Assembly: GCF_030684315.1 (NCBI RefSeq)
Contig: NC_081400.1
Location: 8,499,464 to 8,563,463 of the forward strand
From: Stegostoma tigrinum
Lineage: Eukaryota
Direction: 5' to 3'
Length of the DNA stretch: 64,000 nucleotides
The stretch's first letter is position 1. Every line of letters begins with the position of its first letter. Below are positions 1-46,919 of this stretch, piece after piece. The notes under the pieces were generated by a model, which ran no database searches, was not told the origin of the DNA, and saw nothing but the letters and a program-made list of their open reading frames with translations. The position numbers and the translations under genes were made by a program.

Positions 1-1007
1 GCCTTCCTCTCCTCCGGGGGGGCTCGCCCCGCATTGCCCCTGCCAGCAACCTGGGCGTAGGTGGTCCCCCGCTGCAGGCATGCCCAAAGAGGTGGCCCGC
101 TTCCCCGCAAAGGTTGCAGCTTTTCTCTTGTGGGCAATCTTTTGCAAGGTGTTCCTCCTCGCTGCAGTTCTTGCAGATGGTGACTTTGCAGTCGGCCGCC
201 ACGTGGCCTGACCTATCACAGGCATGGCAGACTTTAGGTTGCCCTGCATAGGTCAGGTAGCCCTTGCTCCCGCCAATCGCGAAGCTGGACGGTGGGTGTA
301 CAATGTTCCTGTCCGCGCCCATCCTCAGCGTCACCTTGACCTGCCTCTTACTGGTCCAGATGCCAAAGGGGTCCATGATGTCAGTTAGGTCCCCTTCCAC
401 CTTCACGTACCTCCCAAGGAAGGTCACGACATCAACTGCTGGCACATGCGGGTTGTACATGTGTACAGTCACCATACGGCTCCTCTGCTCTGGCGTCACA
501 AACAACGGGACAGTGGTCAATACAGAGAGTGGGCCCTCACTTCCTTTCTCCTTGAAAACCTCCAGGAAGCGCTCGCAAAGCTTGGCACTCCTGAAGGTCA
601 TGTCGTAAAAACCTCCTCCTGGGAAATCCTGCAGGCAGTAAATGTCCGCAGCAGTGAACCCACAACAGTCCAACAGGACCCTCTTCATGAAGAAGGTGCG
701 GTCCACAGGTGCACCTTCATCCACTTTCTTCACGGAAACACGGATGGTGTTCCGGACCCCCTGACCTGGGGCACGAGCACTTGCCGCAGCCATCGTTGCA
801 GGTTGGCTGCTCCCCTGAACCAGCGTTAGGCCGAAGCCAGCATTAAGATCCACCGGTTGCAAGGGTGCACAGCCAACCCGACATCCTCCTTTCACCTCCA
901 ACACAGCACTCTCCTCCTCTCGGTCCACAAGAGAGTGGGTCTTTATTTTGTTCCAGATGTAAGCTGGTTCACCGAGCTTGAAGGTTTGTTCCCAGATGTT
1001 TTGTCAC
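1..1007 (-). mobile_element. Tx1-clade non-LTR retrotransposon, 5' portion (leader and start of ORF1); runs off the left edge
   Basis: Near-copy of about 6120-7128. Minus-strand ORF1 starts at ATG 793 (MAAASARAPGQGVRNTIRV...) and has CCHC knuckles (ICKNCSEEEHLAKDC). Confidence 0.9.
992..1007 (-). repeat. 16-bp target-site sequence GTGACAAAACATCTGG (copy 1)
   Basis: ccagatgttttgtcac on +, abutting the poly(T) tail at 1008. Identical at 1761-1776 and one mismatch at 7113-7128. Confidence 0.9.
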
Positions 1008-1760
1008 TTTTTTTTATTTGAAAAAATATACTTTATTCGTGAGATGTACAAAAAAAAACATATTTATAGACCTACCCAGTCATGCAAGCCGCTCCGGGTT
1101 ACCCAGGGGGTACGTTCACCAACTAAAGGAAAAAAACAAAACAAAGAAGAAAAAAAACAAAGCAAAGAAAATACCCCGGCAGTCGTCACCCCGCACAGTC
1201 CCCGTTGGCCCCCTGACCAGTTGGGGACGGCGCCAGCTGGGCCCAGTTACCAGATAGGGTTCTTTTTTCCTATTCTGGACGAGGGGTTTCATACCGTGGT
1301 CTTTCCCCACCGCGCCTTGGCGGCGGCTGCCCCAAGCTTTAGCGCATCCCTCAGCACGTAGTCCTGGACCTTGGAGTGCGCCAGTCTGCAACACTCGGTC
1401 AGGGTCAGTTCTTTCAGCTGGCAGACCAGCAAGTTGCGGGCATGCCAAAGAGCGTCTTTCACCGCATTGATGGTCCTCCAGGCGCAGTTGATGTTGGTCG
1501 CGGTGTGCGTCCCGGGAAACAGCCCGTAGAGCACGGAGTCCCGCGTCACGGAGCTGCTCAGGACGAACCTCGACAAATACCACTGCATCCCCCTCCAGAC
1601 CTCGTGCACGTAGGCACACTCCAGAAGGAGGTGATCAACAGTCTCGTCCCCCCCGCCCCCCCCGCAGCCACCTCGAGGGCAGCGTGCGGTGGCGCAGAGA
1701 TTCCGGGCATGCATAAAGGATCTCACTGGCAGAGCCCCTCTCACCGCCAGCCAAGCAATG
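1008..1760 (-). mobile_element. 5'-truncated Tx1-clade copy (ORF2 C-terminal zinc finger, 3' UTR, poly A)
   Basis: ORF 1289-1744 has CPRGGC...ETVDHLLLEC. AATAAA and poly(A) on the minus strand. Duplicates about 1777-2529. Bracketed by identical 16-mers. Confidence 0.92.
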
Positions 1761-1776
1761 CCAGATGTTTTGTCAC
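1761..1776 (-). repeat. 16-bp target-site sequence (copy 2), TSD of the truncated copy
   Basis: ccagatgttttgtcac lies between the truncation point (caagcaatg|) and the poly(T) of the full-length copy. Confidence 0.9.
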
Positions 1777-2064
1777 TTTTTTTTTATTTGAAAAAATATA
1801 CTTTATTCATAGAATGTACAAAAAATAAAACATTTATACACCTGCCCGGTCATGCAAGCCATTCCGGGTTACCCAGGGGTACGTACACCAACTAAAGGAA
1901 AAAAAAACAAAACAGAGAAAACAAAACAAAAACACAAAGCAAAGAAACCGCCCCGGCAGTCGTCACCCCGCACAGTCCCAGTTGGCCCCCTGACCCGTTG
2001 GGGAAGGCGCCAGCTGGGCCCAGTTACCAGATAGGATTCTTTTCCCTTTTCTGGACGAGGGGGC

Positions 2065-5000
2065 TCATACGGTGGTCTTTCCCCACCGCGCCTTGGCGGC
2101 GGCTGCCCCAAGCTTTAGCGCGTCCCTCAGCACATCGCCCTGGACCTTGGAGTGCGCCAGTCTGCAACACTCGGTCGGGGTCAGTTCTTTCAGCTGGCAG
2201 ACCAGCAAGTTGCGGGCAGACCAAAGAGCGTCTTTCACCGCATTGATAGTCCTCCAGGCGCAGTTGATGTTGGTCTCGGTGTGCGTCCCCGGAAACAGCC
2301 CGTAGAGCACGGAGTCCCGCGTCACGGAGCTGCTCGGGACGAACCTCGACAAATACCACTGCATCCCCCTCCAGACCTCCTGCGCATAGGCACACTCCAG
2401 AAGGAGGTGATCAACAGTCTCGTCCCCCCCCCGCAGCCACCTCGAGGGCAGCGTGCGGTGGTGCAGAGATTCTGGGCATGCATAAAGGATCTCACTGGCA
2501 GAGCCCCTCTCACCGCCAGCCAAGCAATGTCCTTGTGCTTGTTTGAAAGTTCTGGCAATGAGGCATTCTGCCAAACGACTTTGGCAGTCTGCGTGGGGAA
2601 CCACACGACGGGATCCACCCTCTCCTTTTCCCGAAGGGTCTCGAGAATACTACGTGCTGACCACTGCCTGACGGCCTTGTGGTCAAAGGTGTTTCCTTTC
2701 AAAAATTTCTCCACGAAGGACAGGTGGTACGGAATGGTCCAACTACTCGGAGCGTTCCGCGGCAACGAGGCCAGGCCCATCCTTCGCAACAGAACCTCAG
2801 TAAGTAGTGACACTTGGTGTTTGCGTACTGAGGATCTACGCACAGCTTGATGCAGCCACACACAAAGGTAGCCGTCAGGGCGAGGGTGGCGTTCGGTACG
2901 CCCTTTCCCCCATTTCCCAGGTCTTTGTACATGGTATCTCTGCGGACCCAGTCCATCCTCGACCCCCAAATGAAGTGGAAGATGGCCCGGGTGACCGCAG
3001 CGGCGCAGGTCCAGGGGATAGGCCAGGCCTGCGCCACATACAACAGTACCGAAAGCCCCTCGCACCTGACAACCAGGTTCTTACCCACGATGGAGAGCGA
3101 CCGGAGCGTCCACCTGCCCAGCTTCTGCTTAAATTTGGCGATACGCTCCTCCCAAGTCTTAGTGCATGCCCCAGCTCCACCAAACCAAACACCCAGCACC
3201 TTCAGGTAGTCTGTCCTGACGGTGAAGGGGATGAAGGAGCGGTCGTCCCAGTTCCCGAAGAACATGACCTCGCTCTTACCCCTAATGACTTTGGCACCCG
3301 AGGCCAGTTCAAACTGGCCGCAGATGTCCAACAGCCTACGCACCGACCGACGATCGGTGCAGAAGACGGCGACATCATCCATGTACAGGGAGGTCTTGAC
3401 CTGAAGGCCTCCGCTGCCTTGGATAGTCACGCCCTTCAGGCTCACGTCCTTCCTGATGGAGGCGGCGAAGGGCTCCACGCAGCACATGAACAAGGCAGGA
3501 GAGAGCGGGCAGCCCTGCCTGACTCCAGATCTAACAGGAAAACTGTCTGATTCCCACCCGTTGATCGAGACTGCGCTAACGATGTTGGCGTAGAGCAGCC
3601 GGATCCAATTACGGATGCCCTCCCCGAACCCCAATTTGGAGAGGACGTCCCTCATGTAAGCATGAGAGACCCTGTCGAAGGCCTTCTCCTGGTCCAGGCT
3701 GACGAGGCAGGTGTCCACCCGCCTGTCCTGTACGTAGGCGATCATATCCCTGATGAGCGCGAGGCTCTCAGCGATCTTCCTGCCCGGCACAGCACAGGTT
3801 TGGTCAGGGTGAATCACTGACTCCAGGACAGACCTGACCCGGTTGGCAATGACCTTGGCCAGGATTTTGTACTCCACATTCAAAAGTGAAATGGGACGCC
3901 AATTCTTAATTTCTTCCCTCTCCCCCTTCCTCTTGTAAATGAGGGTGATGATGCCCTTCCTCATGGACTTGCACATTTCCCCTGCCCGAAGCGCACTATC
4001 GTACACCTCCAGCAGGTCCTGGCCGACCAGGCCCCACAGAGCAGAATACAGCTCGACCGGTAAGCCGTCACTTCCAGGAGTCCTATTCCTCTGCAAGGAC
4101 TTGAGGGCTCTGGCCAGCTCGTCCAGGGATATCGGCCGGTCCAGCCACTCCCTTGTGCCGTCGTCTAAGACCTCCGTGATAGACGACAGGAACAACTCGG
4201 AGGCCGTGCTGTCCGTGGGCTTCGTGTCGTACAGTCCAGCATAGAAGGATCTGCTGATCCTCAAAACGTCAGGCCGAGACAACATCACCGAGCCGTCGTC
4301 CTCCTTCAGCCGGCTAAGCACAGAGCTCTCTTTGTGCACCTTCTGAAAGAAGAAACGCGAGCACGTCTCGTCCTGCCCCATGGAGCGAACCCTGGACCGG
4401 AAGATTATCCTGGAGGCCTCCGCGGCGAAGAGCGAGGCTTGCTGGCCCCTCACCTCGCGGAGGTCCTCCGTGACATCGACCCCCATCAACTGCAGAAGGA
4501 GCAGCTTCTGCACCCTTTTCTGGAGTCGCGACAGCTTTCCCCGCCTCTCTCTTGCCTTCTGAACACCCTTGAGGACAAAGAACCTCTTGATGTTCTCCTT
4601 CACCGTCTCCCACCAGTCGCCTGGAGACTCAAAGAGGGGTTTAACGGTTCTCCAACCGGCGTACTCCCTCTTAAGCTCCTCAACGTTCTCTGGGGTCAAC
4701 AGAGTCGTGTTGAGCTTCCACGTCCCCTTGCCGGCCGGCTGGTCGTCCTGTAAGTGACAGTCGGCCAACAGGAGGCAGTGGTCAGAGAAGAACACCGGCT
4801 CGACACCGGTGGATCTGACCGAGAACGTCCGTGACACAAACAGGAAGTCTATCCTTGAGCGGATAGACCCGTCTGGCCGCGACCAGGTGTACCTCCGCTG
4901 CGCTCCGTCTGCAGGGGTGCTGAAGACGTCGAGCAGCTCGGCGTCCTTCACCGTGCCCATCAGGAATCTGGACGTGACGTCCAGTTGAATCCCCCCACCC

Positions 5001-5476
5001 GCTGTCCCCACGCCGGATCTTCCATCTGCATCAATGATGCAGTTGAAGTCTCCGCCTAGGATGACCGGCCTGGACGTAGCCAGCAGGGATGGAAGCCGCT
5101 GCAGGACGGCCAACCGCTCACTCCGTACCGCTGGGGCGTACACGTTGATCAGCCTCAGGGGAGCATTCCTGTAGGTGATGTCAGCCACTAGGAGGCGCCC
5201 CCCCACCACCTCCTGAACTTGAGAGATGGTGAAGCTGTGCCCCCGCAGCAGAATAGCCAGGCCCGAGGAGCGACAGTCGTTCCCCCCCGACCAGATCGAA
5301 GGCCCACAGGTCCAGGCGCCGGACCATTTCCCGTAACTGCCGAGGTGCGGTATCCCGCACTCCTGCAGAAACAGGAGGTCCGCCTTGATGGTGGTCAGGT
5401 AGGCCAACGTGGACACACATCTCGCGGTTGACTTCTTGACGCTGCGCACATTAATGCTCGCAATTCGTACCCCCAT
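2065..5476 (-). pseudogene. Tx1 ORF2: APE endonuclease, reverse transcriptase and C-terminal zinc finger; frameshifts near 2790 and 2425
   Basis: IASINVR, LFLQE, GGDFN, SRIDF and SDHC (APE). WRPISLLN, DQEKAFD, GVRQGCPLSP and YMDD (RT). The C-terminus continues in ORFs 2322-3065 and 2065-2604. Confidence 0.93.
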
Positions 5477-6914
5477 TGTGGGCAGTGACCACAGTACCCT
5501 CCCCAAGTCCAAGGTCCAGCCCCTCCATCTGTCCCTTCATGCCCATTGCCCGGGCTAACTGCTGGACGCTCTCTGGGCTCAGGAAACCATCTGTGCTGCC
5601 TTCCGGGTGGCATCCCCCCGTCAGGGGTGCGGAGGCAGGAGGGTCCGGCTCCGGATCAGGCTGGGGACGTTCTGTTTCCTCCTTCCCGCCTGGAAGTTCC
5701 GGGGGGCCCTCCAGTGCTCCAGCAGCACTTGACTGGGTGTCGGAGTGAGCCTCAGGAAGCCTCCCGTCACCTGGAAGCGGGGCGCTGCTTTCCTTCCCCC
5801 TCGAGACCTTTAACTTCTGCTTCGGGGGGGCCCTCTCCGAATCCTCCTCGTCAGAGGAGCTCTTATAGCCCCCCTGTAGCTGCCTCTTCCCGCCTGATTG
5901 TTGCGGTTCCTGGGCCTGTCGACGCACCTTCCTCCTCGCTTTCCGGACTGTTGTCCACTCCCCTGGGTCGCCTGTCGCCGCCTCCATTGGCTCCAGGTTG
6001 TCGGGGGGGATTGGAGCCTGCAGGGGTGCTTTGCTGGCCTCGGGCCCATCCTGCAGGGCTGGGCCCTCCTGCACGGCCTGGCCCTCCTGCACATTAGTGG
6101 GGTCCTTGCTGGGCCCTGGTGCCTTCCTCTCCTCCGGGGGGGCTGGCCCCGCATTTCCCCTGCCGGCGACCTGGGCGTAGGTGGTACCCCGCCGCGGGCA
6201 TGCCCTACAGAAGTGGCCCGCTTCCCCACAAAGGTTGCAGCTTCTCTCTCGTGGGCAATCCTTTACAAGGTGTCCCTCCTCCCTGCACTACCTGCAGATG
6301 GTGGCTTTGCAGTCGGCCGCCATGTGACCTGACCTACCACAGGCATGGCAGACTTTAGGTTGCCCTGCATAGGTCAGGTAGCCCCTGCTCCCGCCGATCG
6401 CGAAGCTGGACGGTGGGTGTGCGACATTCCCGTCTGCGCCCATCCTCAGCGTCACCTTGACCTGCCTCTTACTCGTCCAGATGCCAAAGGGGTCCACGAT
6501 GTCAGTTAGGTCCCCTTCCACCTTCACGTACCTTCCGAGGAAGGTCAGGACATCAACTGCTGGCACATGCGGGTTGTACATGTGTACAGTCACCATACGG
6601 CTCCTCTGTGCTGGCATCACAAACAGTGGGACAGCGGTCAATACAGAGAGTGGGCCCTCACTTCCTTTCTCCTTGAAAACCTCCAGGAAGCGCTCGCAAA
6701 GCTTGGCACTCCGGAAGGTCACATCGTAAAAACCTCCTCCGGGGAAATCCTGCAGGCAGTAAATGTCCGCAGCAGCAAACCCACAACAGTCCAACAGGAC
6801 CCTCTTCACGAAGAAGGTGCGGTCCACAGGTGCACCTTCATCCACCTTCTTTACAGAAACACGGATGGTGTTCCGGACCTCCTGACCTGGGGCACGAGCA
6901 CTCGCTGCAGCCAT
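5451..6914 (-). pseudogene. Tx1 ORF1: gag-like protein with three CCHC knuckles; premature TAG at 6288-6290
   Basis: CHACGRSGHMAADC, CR*CREEGHLVKDC, CNLCGEAGHFCRAC. ORFs 6288-7049 and 5451-6092 share a frame. The copy at 1-793 has AAC (N) at the stop position. Confidence 0.85.
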
Positions 6915-7128
6915 CGTTGCAGGTTGGCTGCTCCCCTGAACCAGCATTAGGCCGAAGCCAGCATTAAGATCCACTGGTCGCAAGGGTGCACAGCCAACCC
7001 GACGTCCTCTTTTCACCTCCAAGACAGCACTCTCGTCCTCTCGGTCCACAAGAGAGTGGGTCTTTATTGTGTTCGAGATGTAAGCTGGTTCACTGAGCTG
7101 TAAGGTTTGTCCCCAGATGTTTTGACAC

Positions 7129-9005
7129 CATTCTAGGTAACAGCATCAGTCAGCCTCCGACGAAACACTGGTGTTATGTCCTGCTTTCTATTTATCTGGT
7201 TAGGTTTCCTTGGGTTGGTGATGTCATTTCCTGCGTTGGTGATGTCATTTCCTGTTCCTTTTCTCAGAGGGTGGCAGATTGATTTGGAGCCAATGTGTTT
7301 GTTGATGGAGTTCCGGTTGGAATGCCATGCTTCTCGGAATTCTCGTGCGTGTCTCTGTTTGGCTTGTCCTAGGATGGATGTGTTGTCCCAATCAAAGTGG
7401 TGTCCTTCCTCATCTGTATGTAAGGATCCTAGTGATGGTGGTCATGTTGTTTTGTGTCTAGTTGATGTTCATGTATCCTGGTGGCTAGCTTCCTGCCAGT
7501 TTGTCCAATGTAGTGTTTGTCACAGTTCTTGCAAGGTATTTTGTAGATGACGTTCGTTTTGTCTGTTGTCTGTATAGGGTCTTTTAAGTTCATTAGCTGT
7601 TGTTTTAGTGTGTTGGTGGGTTTGTGGGCTACCCTGATGCCAAGAGGTCCGAGTAGTCTGGCAGTCATTTCGCAAATGTCTTTGATGTAGGGGAGAGTGG
7701 ATATGGTTTCTGAGCCCGTTTAGTCTGTTTGTTTGGGTTTATTGCCGAGGAATCGGTGAACTGTGTTCATAGGGTACCCATTCTTTTGGATACGCTGTAT
7801 CGGTGATTTTCCTCTGCTCTGCGTAGTTCCTCCGTGCTGCAGTGTGTGGTGGCTCATTGGAATAATGTTCTAATGCAGCTTCGTTTGTGGGTGTTGGGAT
7901 GGTTGCTCCTGTAGTTCAGTGTTTGGTCCGTATGTGTTGTTTTCCTGTAGACGCTGGTTTGAAGTTCCCCATTGGCTGTTCGCTCTACTGTGACATCTAG
8001 GAATGGCAGTTTGTTGTTGTTTTCCTCCTCTTTTGTGAATGTTATGCCAGTAAAGGGTATTATTGATGGTCTTGAAGGTTTCCTCTAATTTGTTTTGTTT
8101 AGTGATGACAAAGGTATCATCCACATAGCGGACCCAAAGTTTGGGTTGGATGATTGGCAGAGCTGTTTGTTGGAGTCTCTGCATTACTGCCTCTGCTAAG
8201 AACCCTGATATCGGAGATCCCATGGGTGTACCGTTGGTTTGTCTGTAGGTTTTGTTATTGAAAATGAAGTGGGTGGTGAGGCATAGGTCCACTAGCTTGA
8301 TGATGTTGTCCTTGCTGATGAGGTTGGTGGTGTCTGGTGTATGTGTCTTCGGTTCTTCTAATAGTGTAGTCAGTGTTTCTTTGGCCAGGTTGATGTTGAT
8401 GGATGTGAACAGGGCTGTTACGTCAAAGGAGACCATTATTTCATCCTCTTCTATCTTGGTGTCTTTGGTGTTCAGGAATTCTTGGGTGGAGCGAATGGAG
8501 TGGCGGGAGTCTTCTACTAGGTGTTTTAGTCTTTGGTGTAGTTCCTTGGCTAATCTGTAGGTTGGTGTTCCAGGTAGCGACACTATGGGCCTGAGGGGGG
8601 TTTCTGGTTTGTGAATTTTTGGTAGTCCATAGCAGCGTGGTGTGTTGGATCCATCTGGTTTCATTTTTTGGAAGCCTCTCTTGTTTAATTCTCCAGATGT
8701 TTGAAGTTTTTTGAGTAAGGCTGTGATTCGGTTCTCTAGTTGTGGGGTTGGCTCTATCGCCACCTGTTGGTAAGTGTTGGTATCTGCAAGCAGAGCGTTC
8801 GCTTTCTCAATGTAGTCTGTTCGGTTTCAGATGACTGTCAAGCGTCCTTTGTCTGCAGGTAGGATAACGATGTTTTTATCTTTTTTGAGTCCTTTTAGGG
8901 CTTTCCTTTCTTGTGTATTGAGTGGGTTTTCTTCCTTTTTCCTGCTTAGTGTTGGTGCGACTGTCTGTCTGATGGTTTGCTGGGTTTCTTCTGTGAGTTT
9001 GTTTA
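7129..9005 (-). mobile_element. Penelope-like element (RT and GIY-YIG), left arm of an inverted structure
   Basis: ORF 7870-8763: YGLPKIHK, SFDVTALFTSI, GTPMGSPISGFLA, RYVDDTF. ORF 7429-7668: NVIYKIPCKNCDKHYIGQTGRKLATRIHEH. Confidence 0.93.
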
Positions 9006-9667
9006 TTTCCTCAGCAATAAACCCAAACAAACAGGCAAAACGGGCTCAGAAACCATATCCACTCTCCCCTACATCAAAGACATTTCCGAAATAACTGCCA
9101 GACTACTCAGACCTCTTGGCATCAGGGTAGCCCACAAACCCACCAACACACTAAAACAGCAGCTAATGAACTTAAAAGACCCTATACAGACAACAAATAA
9201 AACGAACGTCATCTACAAAATACCTTGCAAGAACTGTGACAAACACTACATTGGACAAACTGGCAGGAAGCTAGCCACCAGGATACATGAACATCAACTA
9301 GACACAAAACAACATGACCCACTATCATTCGTATCCTTACATACAGATGAGGAAGGACACCACTTTGATTGGGACAACACATCCATCCAAGGACAAGCCA
9401 AACAGAGACACGCATGAGAATTCCTAGAAGGATGGTATTCCAACCGGAACTCCATCAACAAACACATTGGCTCCAAATCAATCTACCACCCTCTGAGAAA
9501 AGGAACAGGAAATGACATCACCAACCCAAGGAAACCTAACCAGATAAATAGAAAGCGGGACATAACACCAGTGTTTCGTCGGAGGCTGACTGATGCTGTT
9601 ACCTAGAATGGTGACGAAACGTCTGAAAACGAACCTTCCAGCTCAGCGAGCAAACTCACGTCCAGAA
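9006..9667 (+). mobile_element. Penelope-like element, inverted right arm (GIY-YIG region and 3' terminus)
   Basis: Near-identical inverted copy of about 7129-7752. ORF 8977-9417 has the GIY-YIG motifs. Confidence 0.92.
9581..9640 (+). ncRNA. Minimal hammerhead-ribozyme-like motif in the Penelope terminus
   Basis: CTGATGC (9590-9596; consensus CUGAnGA), stem II gttacc/ggtgac, GAAAC (9616-9620), then GTC. ggagg/ccttcc could form stem I. Minimal hammerheads in Penelope termini are established. Confidence 0.7.
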
Positions 9668-10399
9668 GACTGTTAGTGTCTTAACTGTTTTTGCCAAATC
9701 GATTCATGGATATAATTCTGGGAATGCAAAATTGTTCTATGACAATGTAGTCACTTGAATAGACATATCTTCCTGTTGAGCTAAAAGATTGAAACAAGGT
9801 ATCATTGAAACATGCACAATTTTGAAGATGCTGATCATCGGTTATGCTAGGAGAATGTTTCCCCAGACAAAGTCGCAATCTCAGAACAATAAAACATCAA
9901 AAACTGAGATCAGGGCCTATTTCTTGGCTTGGTTTTTGAGGATAAATGGTATTCTGCACTTCAGAAGTTGGGATCTTAGCCAATTAATTATATGTTAAGG
10001 GCCATTTAGTTATCTGTACAGAGTGAATTATTAAAATTTTGGTCATGTCTTTATTTGAAATATGTCTATAAATAGCATATCTATTCCTATTCTTCAGAAA
10101 TACATCCTTCTTGTAATTGTAAAGGGGTCAGGCAAAAGAGAGGTTTGAGAATCAGCATGAGAACGTTAAACACTAGATATTGTTCAAAAAAACTGGCTCA
10201 ACAGATTCAAGAACAGCTTCTTCCAGCAGTTATCACACTTATGAACGGACTTCTCATATATTAAATTTGATAATTCTCTAAACTTTCTCTGTAGCTGCAA
10301 TGCTAAAGTCTGCATTCTGTGCTCATACCCTGATGTAATTGTGCCAGTGTGACTTATCTGGGACAAAACAAATGTCTCTAGTGTGCAAAAATAAATGTA

Positions 10400-12012: not shown

Positions 12013-12950
12013 TACTGGAGTATTGTGTTCACTTTGGATCACCTTGCTAGAGGAACAATGCTATTAAACTGGAAAGAGTGCAGAAGAAATTTACAAGAAT
12101 TTTGTCAGGACTCAAGATCTGAATTATAGAGAGATGTTGGACCAGCTAGGACATTTTTCTTTAGTGGGTCGGAGACATAATGGGGATCTGAGAGAAGTGA
12201 TTAAGATCATAAGAGGCATGGATAAGGTGAAATGCACTCAGTCTTTATACCAGGGTTGGGGAAGTGAGGAATAGAGAACATCAGTTTAAGGAAAGAGGGG
12301 AAAGAATACATGGGAACCTGAGTGGGAACTTTTGGATGGTATGCTTATGGAATGAGCTGTCAGCGGATGGGGGTGGGGTGAGTGATGACGTTTGCTCAAT
12401 GGTTAGCATTGCTGCCTCAGACCAGGGTTCAATTCCACGCTTGGGCAACTGTCTGTGTGGACTTCCCCAACCCTGGTATTAAGACTGAATGCATTTCACC
12501 TTATCCATGCCTCTTATGATCTTAATCACTTCTCTCAGATCCCCATTATGTCTCCTACCCACTAAAGAAAAATGTCCTAGCTGGTCCAACATCTCTCTAT
12601 AATTCAGATCTTGAGTCCTGACAAAATTCTTGTAAACTTCTTCTGCACTCTTTCCAGTTTAATAGCATTGTTCCTCTAGCAAGGTGAACAAAAGTGAACA
12701 CAATACTACAGTGAGGTCTTACCAACTTCAGGTATAAATGCATCATAACTTCCAAACTTCTACTCTCAGTATCATGAGCAATAAAGGCCAGTGTGACAAA
12801 GGCTGCCTTATCCACTTGTGACTCCACTTTCAGACAGCCATGCACCTGAACTCCAAGTTCACTCTCTTACAACACACTCCTGAAGGCCCTCCCATTTACC
12901 ATGAAACTCCTACTTGGATTTGACTTTCCAAAATGCACCACCTCACAGTT
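12013..12950. mobile_element. CR1 3' fragments: + at 12013-12362 and - at 12461-12950, sharing an inverted duplication of about 250 bp
   Basis: Both translate to LARGTMLLNWKECRR.LQEFCQDSRSEL (ORFs 11734-12129 + and 12597-12845 -). Confidence 0.8.
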
Positions 12951-17310: not shown

Positions 17311-17504
17311 CCAATCTTCTAGGTTGTGTTCATGAGTGGGACCAAATAGCTTCTATTGTTTTCTCATTGACTTTCTACCATTTCAAGATCAGAGATGGGG
17401 AAGTTCACTGATAGTTGCACAATGTCCATATCAGTGAAAACTCCTCAGGGTTTGATGCTGGTCATGCCAATTCACAGCAAACCATCCACAAAATTCCCCA
17501 ATAA

Positions 17505-17840
17505 CAGAGTGTGGAGCTGGATGTACACAGCAGGCCAAGCAGCATCTTAGGAGCACAAAAGTTGACCTTTCAGGCCTAGACCTTTCAACAGAAAAGGGGG
17601 ATGGGGAGTGGGTTCTGATACTCTCCTCTCCACCTATCTTCTTTATCCATCTTTGATCTGCCTCCCCCTCTCTCCCAATTTATTTCAGAACCCCCTCCCC
17701 ATCCCCATTTTCTGATGAAGGGTCTGGGCTCGAAACATCAGCTTTTGTGCTCCTGAGATGCTGCTTGGCCTGCTGTGTTCATCCAGCCCCACACTTTGTT
17801 GTCTCAAATTCTTCAGCATCTGCAGTCGCCATTATCTCTG
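17505..17840. mobile_element. Short inverted pair of Penelope-derived termini with a hammerhead-like core
   Basis: ctgatgaagggtctgggctcgaaacatc at about 17712-17739. Same terminus as 26830-26960. Confidence 0.7.
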
Positions 17841-43917: not shown

Positions 43918-45506
43918 GACATGAGTAAGAAAAGGTTAGATGGACTTGAGATTGGTATGACAGGTCGCACAACATCGAGGGCCGAAGGGCCTGTACTGTG
44001 CTGTAATGTTCTATGTTCTATGTTCTATACTTTCCAACAACCAGCTTAAAACTATGACCCCTCGTGCTAGCCATTTCTGCCCTGGGAAATAGTCTCTGGC
44101 TATCAACTCTATCTATGCCTCTCATTATCTTGTATACTTCAATTAGGTCCCCTCTCCTCCTCCTTTTCTCCAATGAAAAGAGACCGAGCTCAGTCAACCT
44201 CTCTTCATAAGATAAGCCGTCCAGTCCAGGCAGCATCCTGGTAAACCTCCTCTGAACCCTCTCCAAAGCATCCACATCTTTCCTATAATACGTCGACCAG
44301 AACTGGACGCAGTATTCCAAGTGCAGTCTAACCAAAGTTTTATAGAGCTGCAACAAGATCTCACGACTCTTAAACTCAATCCCCCTGTTAATGAAAGCCA
44401 AAACACCATATGCTTTCTTAACAACCCTGTCCAATTGGGTGGCCATTTTAAGGGATCTATGTATCTGCACACCAAGATCCCTCTGTTCCTCCACACTGCC
44501 AAGAATCCTATCCTTAATCCTGTACTCAGCTTTCAAATTCGACCTTCCAAAATGCATCACCTCACATTTATCCAGGTTGAACTCCATCTGCCACCTCTCA
44601 GCCCATCTCTGCATCCTGTCAATGTCCCGCTGCAGCCTACAACAGCCCTCTATACTGTCAACGACAACTCCAAACTTTGTGTCGTCTGCAAACTTGCTGA
44701 CCCATCCTTCAATCCCCTCATCCAAGTCATTAATAAAAATTACAAACAGTAGAGGCCCAAGGACACAGCCCTGTGGAACCCCACTCACCACTAACTTCCA
44801 GGCAGAATATTTTCCTTCTACTACCACTCGCTGTCTTCCGTTGGCCAGCCAATTCTGTATCCAAACAGCTAAGTTCCCCTGTATCCCATTCCTCCTGACC
44901 TTCTGAATGAGCCTACCATGGGGTACCTTATCAAATGCCTTACTGAAGTCCATATACACCACATCCACAGCTCGACCCTCATTAACCTTTCTAGTCACAT
45001 CCTCAAAGAACTCGATAAGGTTTGTGAGGCATGACCTGCCCCTCACAAAGCCGTGTTGACTGTATTTGATCAAGCCATGCTCTTCCAGATGGTCATAAAT
45101 CCTAACCCTCAGAATCCTTTCTAACACCTTGCAGACGACAGACGTGAGACTTACTGGTCTGTAATTGCCGGGGATTTCCCTATTTCCTTTCTTGAAGAGA
45201 GGAATTACATTTGCCTCTCTCCAGTCCTCAGGTACGACTCCAGTGGAGAGCGAGGATGCAAAGATCTTCGCAAGTGGCGAAGCAATTGCATTTCTCGCTT
45301 CCCAAAGCAGCCGAGGACAAATCTGCTCCGGGCCTGGTGACTTGTCAATCTTAATGTTTGACAAAATATTCAGCACATCAGCTTCCTCTATCTCTATCCA
45401 TTCCAGCATGCACACCTGCTCTTCAAAGGTTTCATTCACTACAAAGTTCGTTTCTTTCGTAAAGACAGAAGCAAAACACTCATTTAGGGCTTCCCCTACC
45501 TCCTCA
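43918..45506 (-). mobile_element. Young CR1 insertion with an open RT region (ORF 44018-45532) and an inverted 3'-terminal piece (about 43918-44020, +)
   Basis: NYRPVSLTSV, DFSKAFDKVPH, GVPQGCVLGPLLF and KFADDTK in a 504-aa ORF without stops. Confidence 0.93.
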
Positions 45507-46919
45507 GAAGCCTGTGAAGCCTGATAGCTCAATTTGCTTTTGTGGAGATTTTAAGCAAACAGTAAACCACTTCTCACAGCTGGAACAATACACAATCCCT
45601 CCCTTACAGGACTTGTACACAAAGTTAGGTGGGGGGGGGGGGGTGAGTGGGGTGAGGCGGGGGAATTCCTGTAAATTATGGAGCTGTACATGAACCATGC
45701 CTGCTTGCAATTGGGGCTGGATGAGGAGCCCTAGAAGTAAGCAACAATTAACATCTATATGGGTTTGTATTAATATACAAGACTACCAGTTAGAGCATTA
45801 TTAGGCTGCGTCCTTTTCCATTGCACTATGTAGAACATTTTACAGGCTACCCCAGTTGCCATTTATCTGGGTAATGTGCTAATAACCAAGAAGACCAATT
45901 CGGGGTTCTTGGAGAATTTGAATATAGTGCTTAAACATTTCTCCCAGGTGAGATTAAGCCTTAGAAAGGAAAATTATGTGGTCCAAACACCCAACGTCCT
46001 CTACTTAGGGTATAGAGTAAGCAAGACCGGGTTACACTCATTGGAGGTTAAAGTGAGGGTAGTCAAAAGAGCCCCGCTCCCACGTCTGTACCAGAACTTA
46101 GGTCTTTCCTCGGGTTAGTGAATTATTATAGAAAAGTCATGCATAATTTGGCCTCCATCTTGGCTTACACTTGCTATTGATAAAAGATCACCCTTTGAAG
46201 TGGTCGCAAAGCCAAGTAGTAGCCTTGAGGGGAGTAAAGAAACAGCTATCATCGTCTAAGATGTTGACCAACAATGATCCGAAGCAAGAGGTAGCATTGA
46301 CATATGGTGCCTCCCTATACGGTATTGGGTTAGTATTGGCTCACTGTTGGCCCAATGGAAAGGAACGCCTAATAACGTATGCTTCGCAAGCTTTGGTTGA
46401 TGGTGAACGCAAATCTGCGCATATAGAGAAGGAAGATTTGGCACTTATCTTTGATGTGAGGATGCTCCACCAGTATATTTTCGGTCAAGAATTTGTCATA
46501 GTAACAGATCACAAACTCCTGTTAGGGCTACTGAAGGACAAAAAGGCACTGCCACCCATATTTTCCGTTAGAATTCAGTGGAGGGCCCTTATTCTCAACG
46601 CGTACAAGTACAAGCTAGAATACTGTCCAGGAAGACAAGTAACTAATGTGGATGCCCTGGGCCGCCTCCCATTGGTAGATACCGGACCAGCAGTGCTTCC
46701 CCTGGAACAGTTGTTCTGTATTTAAACTTCCTGACACTCTTCTGGTCCCCGCTGACAATATCTGACTGTGGACACAAAATGATCTTATCCTCACAAAACT
46801 AAAACAGTTGGTGGCAATGAGGGAGGAAGAAGATCCACAACAAACAGGACTGAAACCTTTATGGACCCTGCAAGAGCAGATGATCGTACAGGATACTTGC
46901 CAAAAGCATAAAGAAAAGC

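Follow-up and report, generated by a model that had tools for sequence, protein, structure and literature searches.

In the genome of Stegostoma tigrinum a long interspersed nuclear element (LINE) of the Tx1 type inserts almost exclusively at a single position within the predicted minimal hammerhead ribozyme of one Penelope-like element (PLE) family. We studied this element starting from a stretch of 64,000 nucleotides (contig NC_081400.1, positions 8,499,464 to 8,563,463, forward strand; the window in the following). For this stretch the initial annotation had proposed that a Tx1 retrotransposon inserts site-specifically into the 3' strand of stem II of a Penelope hammerhead. The proposal held up: 128 of 130 Tx1 tails were located at the same stem II position of the targeted PLE's hammerhead. 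We are highly confident that this represents real, site-specific and independently repeated Tx1 insertion.

The tails were collected in two ways. A 23-mer taken from the Tx1 tail matched exactly at 2,744 places in the genome, which puts the family at no fewer than 2,700 copies. Of these matches the first 100 on one contig (C1) were fetched irrespective of their flanks. A second set was obtained by a similarity search with the tail alone (272 candidates), from which 30 of 40 tails were scored, including the full-length copy of the window (copy A, see below). For the positional set 99 of the 100 tails entered the site: 88 continued into the PLE remainder, 8 into the head of another Tx1 copy and 3 into a damaged but recognisable site. 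The single off-target tail was accompanied by a duplication. In the similarity set 29 of 30 tails were on target. Heterogeneous 3' flanks unrelated to Penelope, named initially as the observation that would speak against targeting, were seen in neither set. The on-target tails together with the structure of the array described below also rule out a local duplication of one chance insertion. Kojima considers an element target-specific if more than 20% of its flanks lie in one sequence type (PMC4494074, accessible text); here the pooled share lay far above this value and independent truncated copies were found in addition. Numbering the site such that position 0 is the G of GTGAC, the junctions occurred in two adjacent registers: of 97 alignable tails, 48 have G and 49 have A at position -1.

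The host has the features of an endonuclease-containing (EN+) Penelope-like element. It possesses a reverse transcriptase (RT) remnant (RVT_1), a C-terminal GIY-YIG motif (VIY..YIG, read by eye, without Pfam match), inverted arms and short outer duplications, seen as outer matches of 11-16 bp at most of the 13 loci examined. The empty site reads CTGATGA (-21 to -15), followed by one additional T, by stem II (GTTACC/GGTGAC, enclosing a loop of 6 nt) and by GAAAC GTC. The minimal hammerhead of metazoan PLEs is described to have a CUGANGA/GAAA core, an extra base before stem II, a G10.1-C11.1 pair, a palindromic 15.2-16.2 and a stem III without loop (PMC4209133, accessible text). The empty sites fit this motif with their CUGANGA, extra base, G-C-closed stem II, GAAA, palindromic AC/GU and NUH triplet. 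The motif was recognised from its core letters: Rfam did not detect a hammerhead, and energy folding provided neither a monomeric hammerhead nor significant z-scores, with stem II forming in the folds. Within the hammerhead core numbering A6 and G12 are important positions. Tx1 enters the 3' strand of stem II at a point that precedes the predicted cleavage site by 12-13 nt.

The upstream target 21-mer of the targeted family had 16,870 exact matches (about 3e-6 of the strand positions), and about 11% (10.8%) of the pattern-matching target sites were occupied. Another PLE family, whose hammerhead has an identical GAAACGTC core, gave about seven times as many exact 21-mer matches (122,273), yet this second family received none of the 130 Tx1 tails, and none of its 20 poly(A)-adjacent sites examined, out of 34 matches, carried this Tx1. 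Since this family is ignored despite its common core, the target is one PLE family, and generic targeting of the hammerhead core is ruled out. The view that the landing site is a conserved ribozyme motif as such thus found no support.

Within the window, positions 1-9,668 contain three tandem Tx1-type copies (A, B and C) on the minus strand, all of which lie inside a single arm of an inverted PLE. The initial annotation had correctly seen three copies in head-to-tail orientation, of which A is full length, B is 5'-truncated and C is full length but runs off the window. Following the minus strand, the PLE left arm (9005-7129, with an RT remnant at 8826-7870, an endonuclease remnant and the 3' region) is succeeded by A (7128-1777; 5,352 nt, 9-nt A tail), by a 16-mer at 1776-1761 that represents the upstream 16-bp target-site duplication of B, by B (1760-1008; Tx1 positions 4600-5351 only) and by C, which begins at 1007 and reaches to -4337. 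The window thus holds only the 5' part of C (1-1007; head, 5' untranslated region (UTR) and start of the first open reading frame (ORF1)). In the neighbouring DNA, 4.3 kb past the window edge, C ends with a short A tail and the PLE resumes at -4338 with the remainder GTGACGAAACGTCTGAAAAC, which is 93% like the right arm. C and A are likewise 93% identical. The right arm (9006-9668, plus strand) is inverted and 5'-truncated, carries the GIY-YIG motif (VIY...CxxC...YIG) at 9127-9417 and has retained the empty minimal hammerhead motif (9590-9623, plus strand). The equivalent of the insertion position is at 9610/9611 therein and the predicted cleavage at 9623/9624.

At the outermost junction (7129/7128) the left arm is interrupted directly after the 5' half of the hammerhead (7129-7149, minus strand), which includes a variant CTGATGC core in place of the CTGATGA of most empty copies, the 5' strand of stem II and loop 2. 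Over roughly 90 nt before the junction the two arms are identical; past it they diverge, and PLE-like sequence runs on for 58 nt into the 5' ends of A and C. These 58 nt inside the Tx1 copies had initially been missed. The head of A (7071-7128, minus strand) contains the hammerhead 3' half with mutated core letters followed by about 45 nt of diverged PLE tail; in the head of C (950-1007, minus strand) the first 16 nt double as the downstream duplication of B. The 16-mer initially taken to be identical at every junction is exact at 992-1007 and 1761-1776, whereas the copy at 7113-7128 has one mismatch (GTGTC...). The empty right arm matches it at 9611-9626 with 3 mismatches. Distances to the nearest sampled copy were 5.8% for C, 4.5% for B and 1.7% for A. 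Taken as ages, these would make C the oldest copy, followed by B and by A as the youngest, such that each newer copy would have inserted before its predecessor. With no more than 16 nt of target lying downstream of the site that A entered, the upstream arm plus these 16 nt would suffice for recognition.

The head is a regular part of the element. Among the 100 positional copies 76 began with it, 70 after the PLE 5' half and 6 after a Tx1 tail, and it was also present at all 30 loci found by the 5' UTR alone. The 16-mer at full-length 5' junctions is mostly element-borne, i.e. the start of the 58-nt head, rather than a plain target duplication. Across the genome the change at -18 (CTGTTGA) was observed in 683 of 1,445 head-type sites (47%) but only in 113 of 11,903 empty-type sites (1%; odds ratio 94), where head-type was called from the +15 letter, checked in 2 of 2 cases. 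A comparison with the sister arm at 20 loci gave at -18 the pairs T/A (8 loci), A/A (8), T/T (1), A/T (0) and others (3). At +10 the pair was A/G in 14 of 20, and -71 was common to both arms in 16 of 20. The difference from the sister arm is thus polar. An intact core together with GAAACGTC was found at 3 of 95 5' junctions (70 positional ones and 25 from the UTR search) compared to 21 of 28 empty sites chosen by an exact 21-mer; GAAACGTC was retained in 44 of 87 3' remainders. As the -18 letter is inherited, the template RNA should begin 18 nt or further upstream of the nick and should thus be uncut at +13, and the cDNA would overwrite a variable stretch of the target. At locus L173 the 3' junction leads into a head-type 58-mer that continues into the PLE tail without a Tx1 5' UTR. 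It may be a lone head that recombination left behind, or else a remnant of the PLE variant that gave rise to the head.

The truncation point of B at Tx1 position 4600 recurred with 1-2 letters of play in 10 genomic copies (L251-L260), which were picked by a pattern requiring the target. On the Tx1 tree (see below) these copies were scattered, i.e. polyphyletic (9 changes vs 9.7 for shuffled data), and they were flanked by locus-matched duplications of 16-17 bp. The +15 letter was equal on both sides in all 9 readable cases, being G before a head and A before an empty PLE, and for L251 and L254 private letters were common to both sides. This excludes that B belongs to a short non-autonomous subfamily. 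Six of nine hotspot-truncated copies preceded a Tx1 head, compared to the 10.8% occupancy (p 1e-4). Other truncations were rare (1 of 8 matches, plus L015, which is on target, truncated and flanked by a duplication). The hotspot could arise where the RT pauses, where the RNA is cut or from an internal start; a hairpin was rejected as its cause, as the 60-nt window energies at this position are average.

We consider it probable that the element spreads by site-specific target-primed reverse transcription into one PLE family and that its 5' end is joined by pairing of a PLE-derived leader whose ribozyme is predicted to be dead. In this scheme transcription would begin within the PLE arm, 18 nt or more upstream of the nick, and would probably use the PLE promoter. 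The core changes seen at -18, +5 and +10 would prevent self-cleavage and let the leader survive. The apurinic/apyrimidinic endonuclease (APE) domain would nick the target, with the tails being found at the two adjacent registers, and the 16-17 bp duplication seen in truncated copies can be taken as the mark of the second-strand cut. Full-length cDNA would anneal to the upstream target and thereby overwrite the variable tract. The head re-creates a target, giving rise to tandem arrays as seen for C, B and A, and some PLE::Tx1 composites may later have been copied by the PLE machinery. In two tiny PLE fold-backs, L100/L101 and L116/L117, the arms start upstream of the Tx1 insertion point by 37-41 nt. 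These starts at -37 to -41 provide a weak hint at the start of the PLE RNA and hence of the co-transcript.

The same distribution of tails could in principle result if one or a few chance Tx1 insertions in a PLE terminal repeat had been amplified as a composite by the PLE RT, without any targeting by Tx1. For 12 young copies the Tx1 bodies diverged by 1.9% compared to 7.6% for the upstream PLE and 7.3% for the remainder (7 copies), i.e. the flanks were four times more diverged than the bodies. We furthermore placed 94 copies on a FastTree tree, from which 6 of the 100 were omitted as too short. The head variant clustered on this tree (23 changes vs a shuffled mean of 38.9; none of 500 shuffles was as low), whereas the remainder allele did not (18 changes vs 18.7). 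Instead, the remainder allele equalled the sister-arm allele at 17 of 19 scorable loci (p 0.002), and 20 loci carried an empty sister arm. L197 and L198 have rare remainder letters in common, yet they possess different Tx1 heads and bodies that are 9.9% diverged. Young copies in older flanks, flank alleles that track the sister arm and truncated copies with locus-matched duplications (9 of 9 hotspot copies) argue for independent insertions. Some copies do look as if amplified by the PLE: 10 of the 100 tails lie in fold-backs and 5 more join an inverted PLE body, inverted 5'-truncated copies being a hallmark of PLEs (PMC8557442, accessible text). Moreover, L187 and L188 are only 1.3% apart against a background of 7.5% (a single event), rare junction letters are common to L200/L201 as well as to L179 and its sister, and 76 headed copies out of 100 are unusually many for a LINE. 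As the main route, amplification by the PLE is nonetheless largely refuted, and we regard it as very improbable.

Other explanations accept the targeting but differ in its mechanics. Insertion might restore a hammerhead at the 5' junction that cuts PLE read-through RNA 13 nt into the head, similar to R2. The predicted cleavage site at +13 is indeed just within the 16-bp duplication, and the three junctions with a fully intact motif would allow for it. However, the other 92 of 95 lack an intact motif, and Tx1 passes on its letters at -18, +5 and +10, which all lie upstream of the cleavage site and could not be carried by a cleaved RNA. R2-like processing is thus even less probable. The least probable account dispenses with reverse transcription: the Tx1 endonuclease would break the empty site and gene conversion would copy the occupied locus. 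This would agree with the scarcity of truncated copies (the 1 of 8 matches and the 10 hotspot copies) and with the co-conversion of upstream letters, but the co-conversion is one-sided, with donor letters at -18 upstream and recipient letters at +20 downstream. Furthermore, the tails vary between 3 and 13 nt in two registers, and duplications flank the truncated copies. A less remote, though still rather unlikely, scenario is that the PLE-like leader and not the endonuclease alone selects the site by pairing with the target before nicking. Heads with several changes (GTGACTGATTGTC) still serve as targets (L128, L173), hotspot-truncated copies are enriched before Tx1 heads (6 of 9), and the second family is ignored despite its common core. 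The same facts are, however, compatible with a protein that reads stem II and the flanking letters, and the two off-target copies with duplications (L005, L213) show nicking without homology.

Several observations weigh against the targeted insertion model in the form preferred here. The nicking, the start of the transcript and the loss of cleavage are each deduced from sequence. The Tx1 tree is star-like with low support, and on it the -18 allele was unclustered (21 changes vs 21.1), which fits a variable crossover but provides no positive support. At +5 and +10 the changes are CpG transitions, which occur readily, and the sample of empty sites is biased towards young copies by its 21-mer selection. 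Minimal hammerheads are reported to cleave poorly in vitro even if intact (PMC4209133, accessible text), such that a 'dead' ribozyme may matter little. Classical truncated insertions are rare, and because the pattern demands the target, the hotspot copies show repeated on-target priming with duplication but not its rate. Finally, 24 of the 100 positional copies were headless, none of them with an on-target duplication. These comprise 10 head-to-head Tx1 fold-backs, 5 copies at an inverted PLE body, 1 directly at the PLE body, 3 interrupted or rearranged copies, 4 with unrelated flanks and 1 off target. For the four with unrelated flanks (L155, L166, L168, L186) PLE-type duplications were looked for and none was found; they may be interrupted copies.

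In the fold-backs (L146/L147, L159/L160, L162/L163, L206/L207, L161, L203) Tx1 3' parts stand head to head with outer PLE remainders, and the L206 fold-back has a 13-bp outer duplication. Their structure suggests PLE-driven copying of PLE::Tx1 composites or the collapse of long palindromes, in either case for a minority of copies. At other loci (L148, L170, L173/L174, L197/L198, L215) Tx1 is present in both arms of one inverted PLE, often with different heads. Of about 27 loci at which the sister arm was visible, 7 were doubly occupied in this way, which is above the expectation from 11% occupancy.

Targeting of transposons is known within the Tx1 clade. Xenopus Tx1L enters Tx1D, the crocodilian Tx1-Mar and Tx1-9_AMi enter Mariner-N4_AMi and Harbinger, respectively, and the targets of Tx1-8_Crp and Tx1-4_AMi are long terminal repeat retrotransposons (PMC4494074, accessible text). 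As in the Tx1L/Tx1-Mar group, we see an APE- and RT-bearing LINE that enters another, more abundant mobile element and forms tandem insertions, and hitchhiking needed the same kind of exclusion there, according to the same text. In contrast to that group, the present element targets a PLE, hits a single position in 98% of cases rather than preferring surroundings of two regions, and has a target-derived head and leader. Keno (U2 small nuclear RNA) and Kibi/Koshi (microsatellites) show comparable Tx1-clade specificity for multicopy sequences, with Keno's target also encoding a structured RNA (accessible text of PMC4494074 and PMC4640811). Keno's target is, however, a conserved host gene, whereas here it is the family-specific and short-lived ribozyme of a selfish element. 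For 5' joining by a heteroduplex and an inherited downstream duplication R2 provides the precedent. R2, especially that of the earwig, has in common with our element the co-transcription with the target, a cDNA bearing target sequence by which the 5' junctions become uniform, the inheritance of variants at the junction, and a duplicated and diverged stretch of downstream target (22 bp for earwig R2, 58 nt for the present Tx1). Different from R2, which uses a restriction-like endonuclease and its own active hepatitis delta virus-like ribozyme at the 5' end (PMC3774820, accessible text, for all R2 properties), the present APE element enters a foreign hammerhead and carries a mutated copy of it. 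The host resembles metazoan PLEs with minimal hammerheads in its core motif features (PMC4209133) and inverted arms (PMC8557442, PMC11167929); the accessible parts of these three accounts do not mention a LINE that targets a PLE.

We found no description of a LINE targeting the Penelope hammerhead in a literature search that covered titles and the beginnings of abstracts, with Repbase, Dfam and Kojima and Fujiwara 2004 outside its scope. The main text of PMC4494074 does not contain the word 'penelope', and its supplements (flank figures S3-S6) may list such a target. Aimed insertion as such is known for this group; it is the landing site that we did not find described. With it, the ribozyme of a retrotransposon joins the known LINE targets, and the family provides an APE-type system whose targeting of one position is near-absolute and which offers thousands of natural insertions. 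The leader stems from the target but has diverged from it, such that each 5' junction would record where donor RNA overwrote recipient DNA. The junctions can thereby serve as a genome-scale readout of heteroduplex 5' joining and second-strand cutting, which have hitherto been argued chiefly from R2. They make it directly testable whether APE-type LINEs choose their site by protein only or with help of RNA, which has bearing on retrotransposon-based gene insertion. In addition, the leader has lost the intact motif to a large extent, which is indirect evidence for an in vivo role of minimal PLE hammerheads. A wider and speculative view, to which we give a limited chance, is that of a two-way hyperparasite. 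The LINE would use the PLE promoter, its dead leader would help to choose and seal the site, and about one in ten host ribozymes would be overwritten, throttling the PLE family. The PLE machinery would in turn spread the LINE as cargo, and hammerhead repeats would be a recurring Tx1 niche across animals.

We filed the element as a Tx1-type LINE from its domain content and sequence similarity. ORF1 of copy A (5451-6914, minus strand) has one in-frame stop near 6288 and encodes two ZCCHC3-like RNA-binding domains and CCHC knuckles (PF23057, PF23058, PF00098). RNA-binding domains and CCHC knuckles are typical for ORF1 of the Tx1 clade; a literature search found no paper linking ZCCHC3 with Tx1. 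ORF2 (2065-5476, minus strand) encodes an N-terminal APE-type endonuclease (PF03372) and an RT (PF00078), as expected for a Tx1-clade LINE. It is open over 925 aa to 2699, followed by a frame break and a C-terminal piece at 2649-2065. Among the 76 headed copies, 10 retain a natural reading frame of more than 1,000 uninterrupted codons. Its RT region is 45% identical (E 8.6e-77) to the zebrafish 'transposon TX1 uncharacterized 149 kDa protein', and its APE part matched human L1 ORF2p only at E 2e-4, both being measures of similarity and not placements on a reference tree. The A-rich tails (3-13 nt) and the 16-17 bp duplications of truncated copies are further LINE features. An atlas search with a homologue returned generic APE-RT clusters only. 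In a fish, ten near-identical ORF2 relatives with consecutive gene numbers are found on one contig, which hints at a long tandem array of related Tx1 elements.

Both the region of the 5' junction and the tail are covered by contigs of a second organism (organism B), with one head variant standing as a loose end. This is a hint only, as among the pieces listed there is none that crosses a junction with 31 nt to either side. In three further organisms (organisms C, D and E) contigs cover the PLE part and little of Tx1. The window itself contains copies of the second hammerhead-bearing PLE-like family (the one with 122,273 exact 21-mer matches) at 17503-17800, 23143 and 37798, one of them as an inverted pair, a 252-nt inverted repeat with 97% identity at 12014-12712, and a 510-aa frame containing an RT at 44018-45550 on the minus strand.

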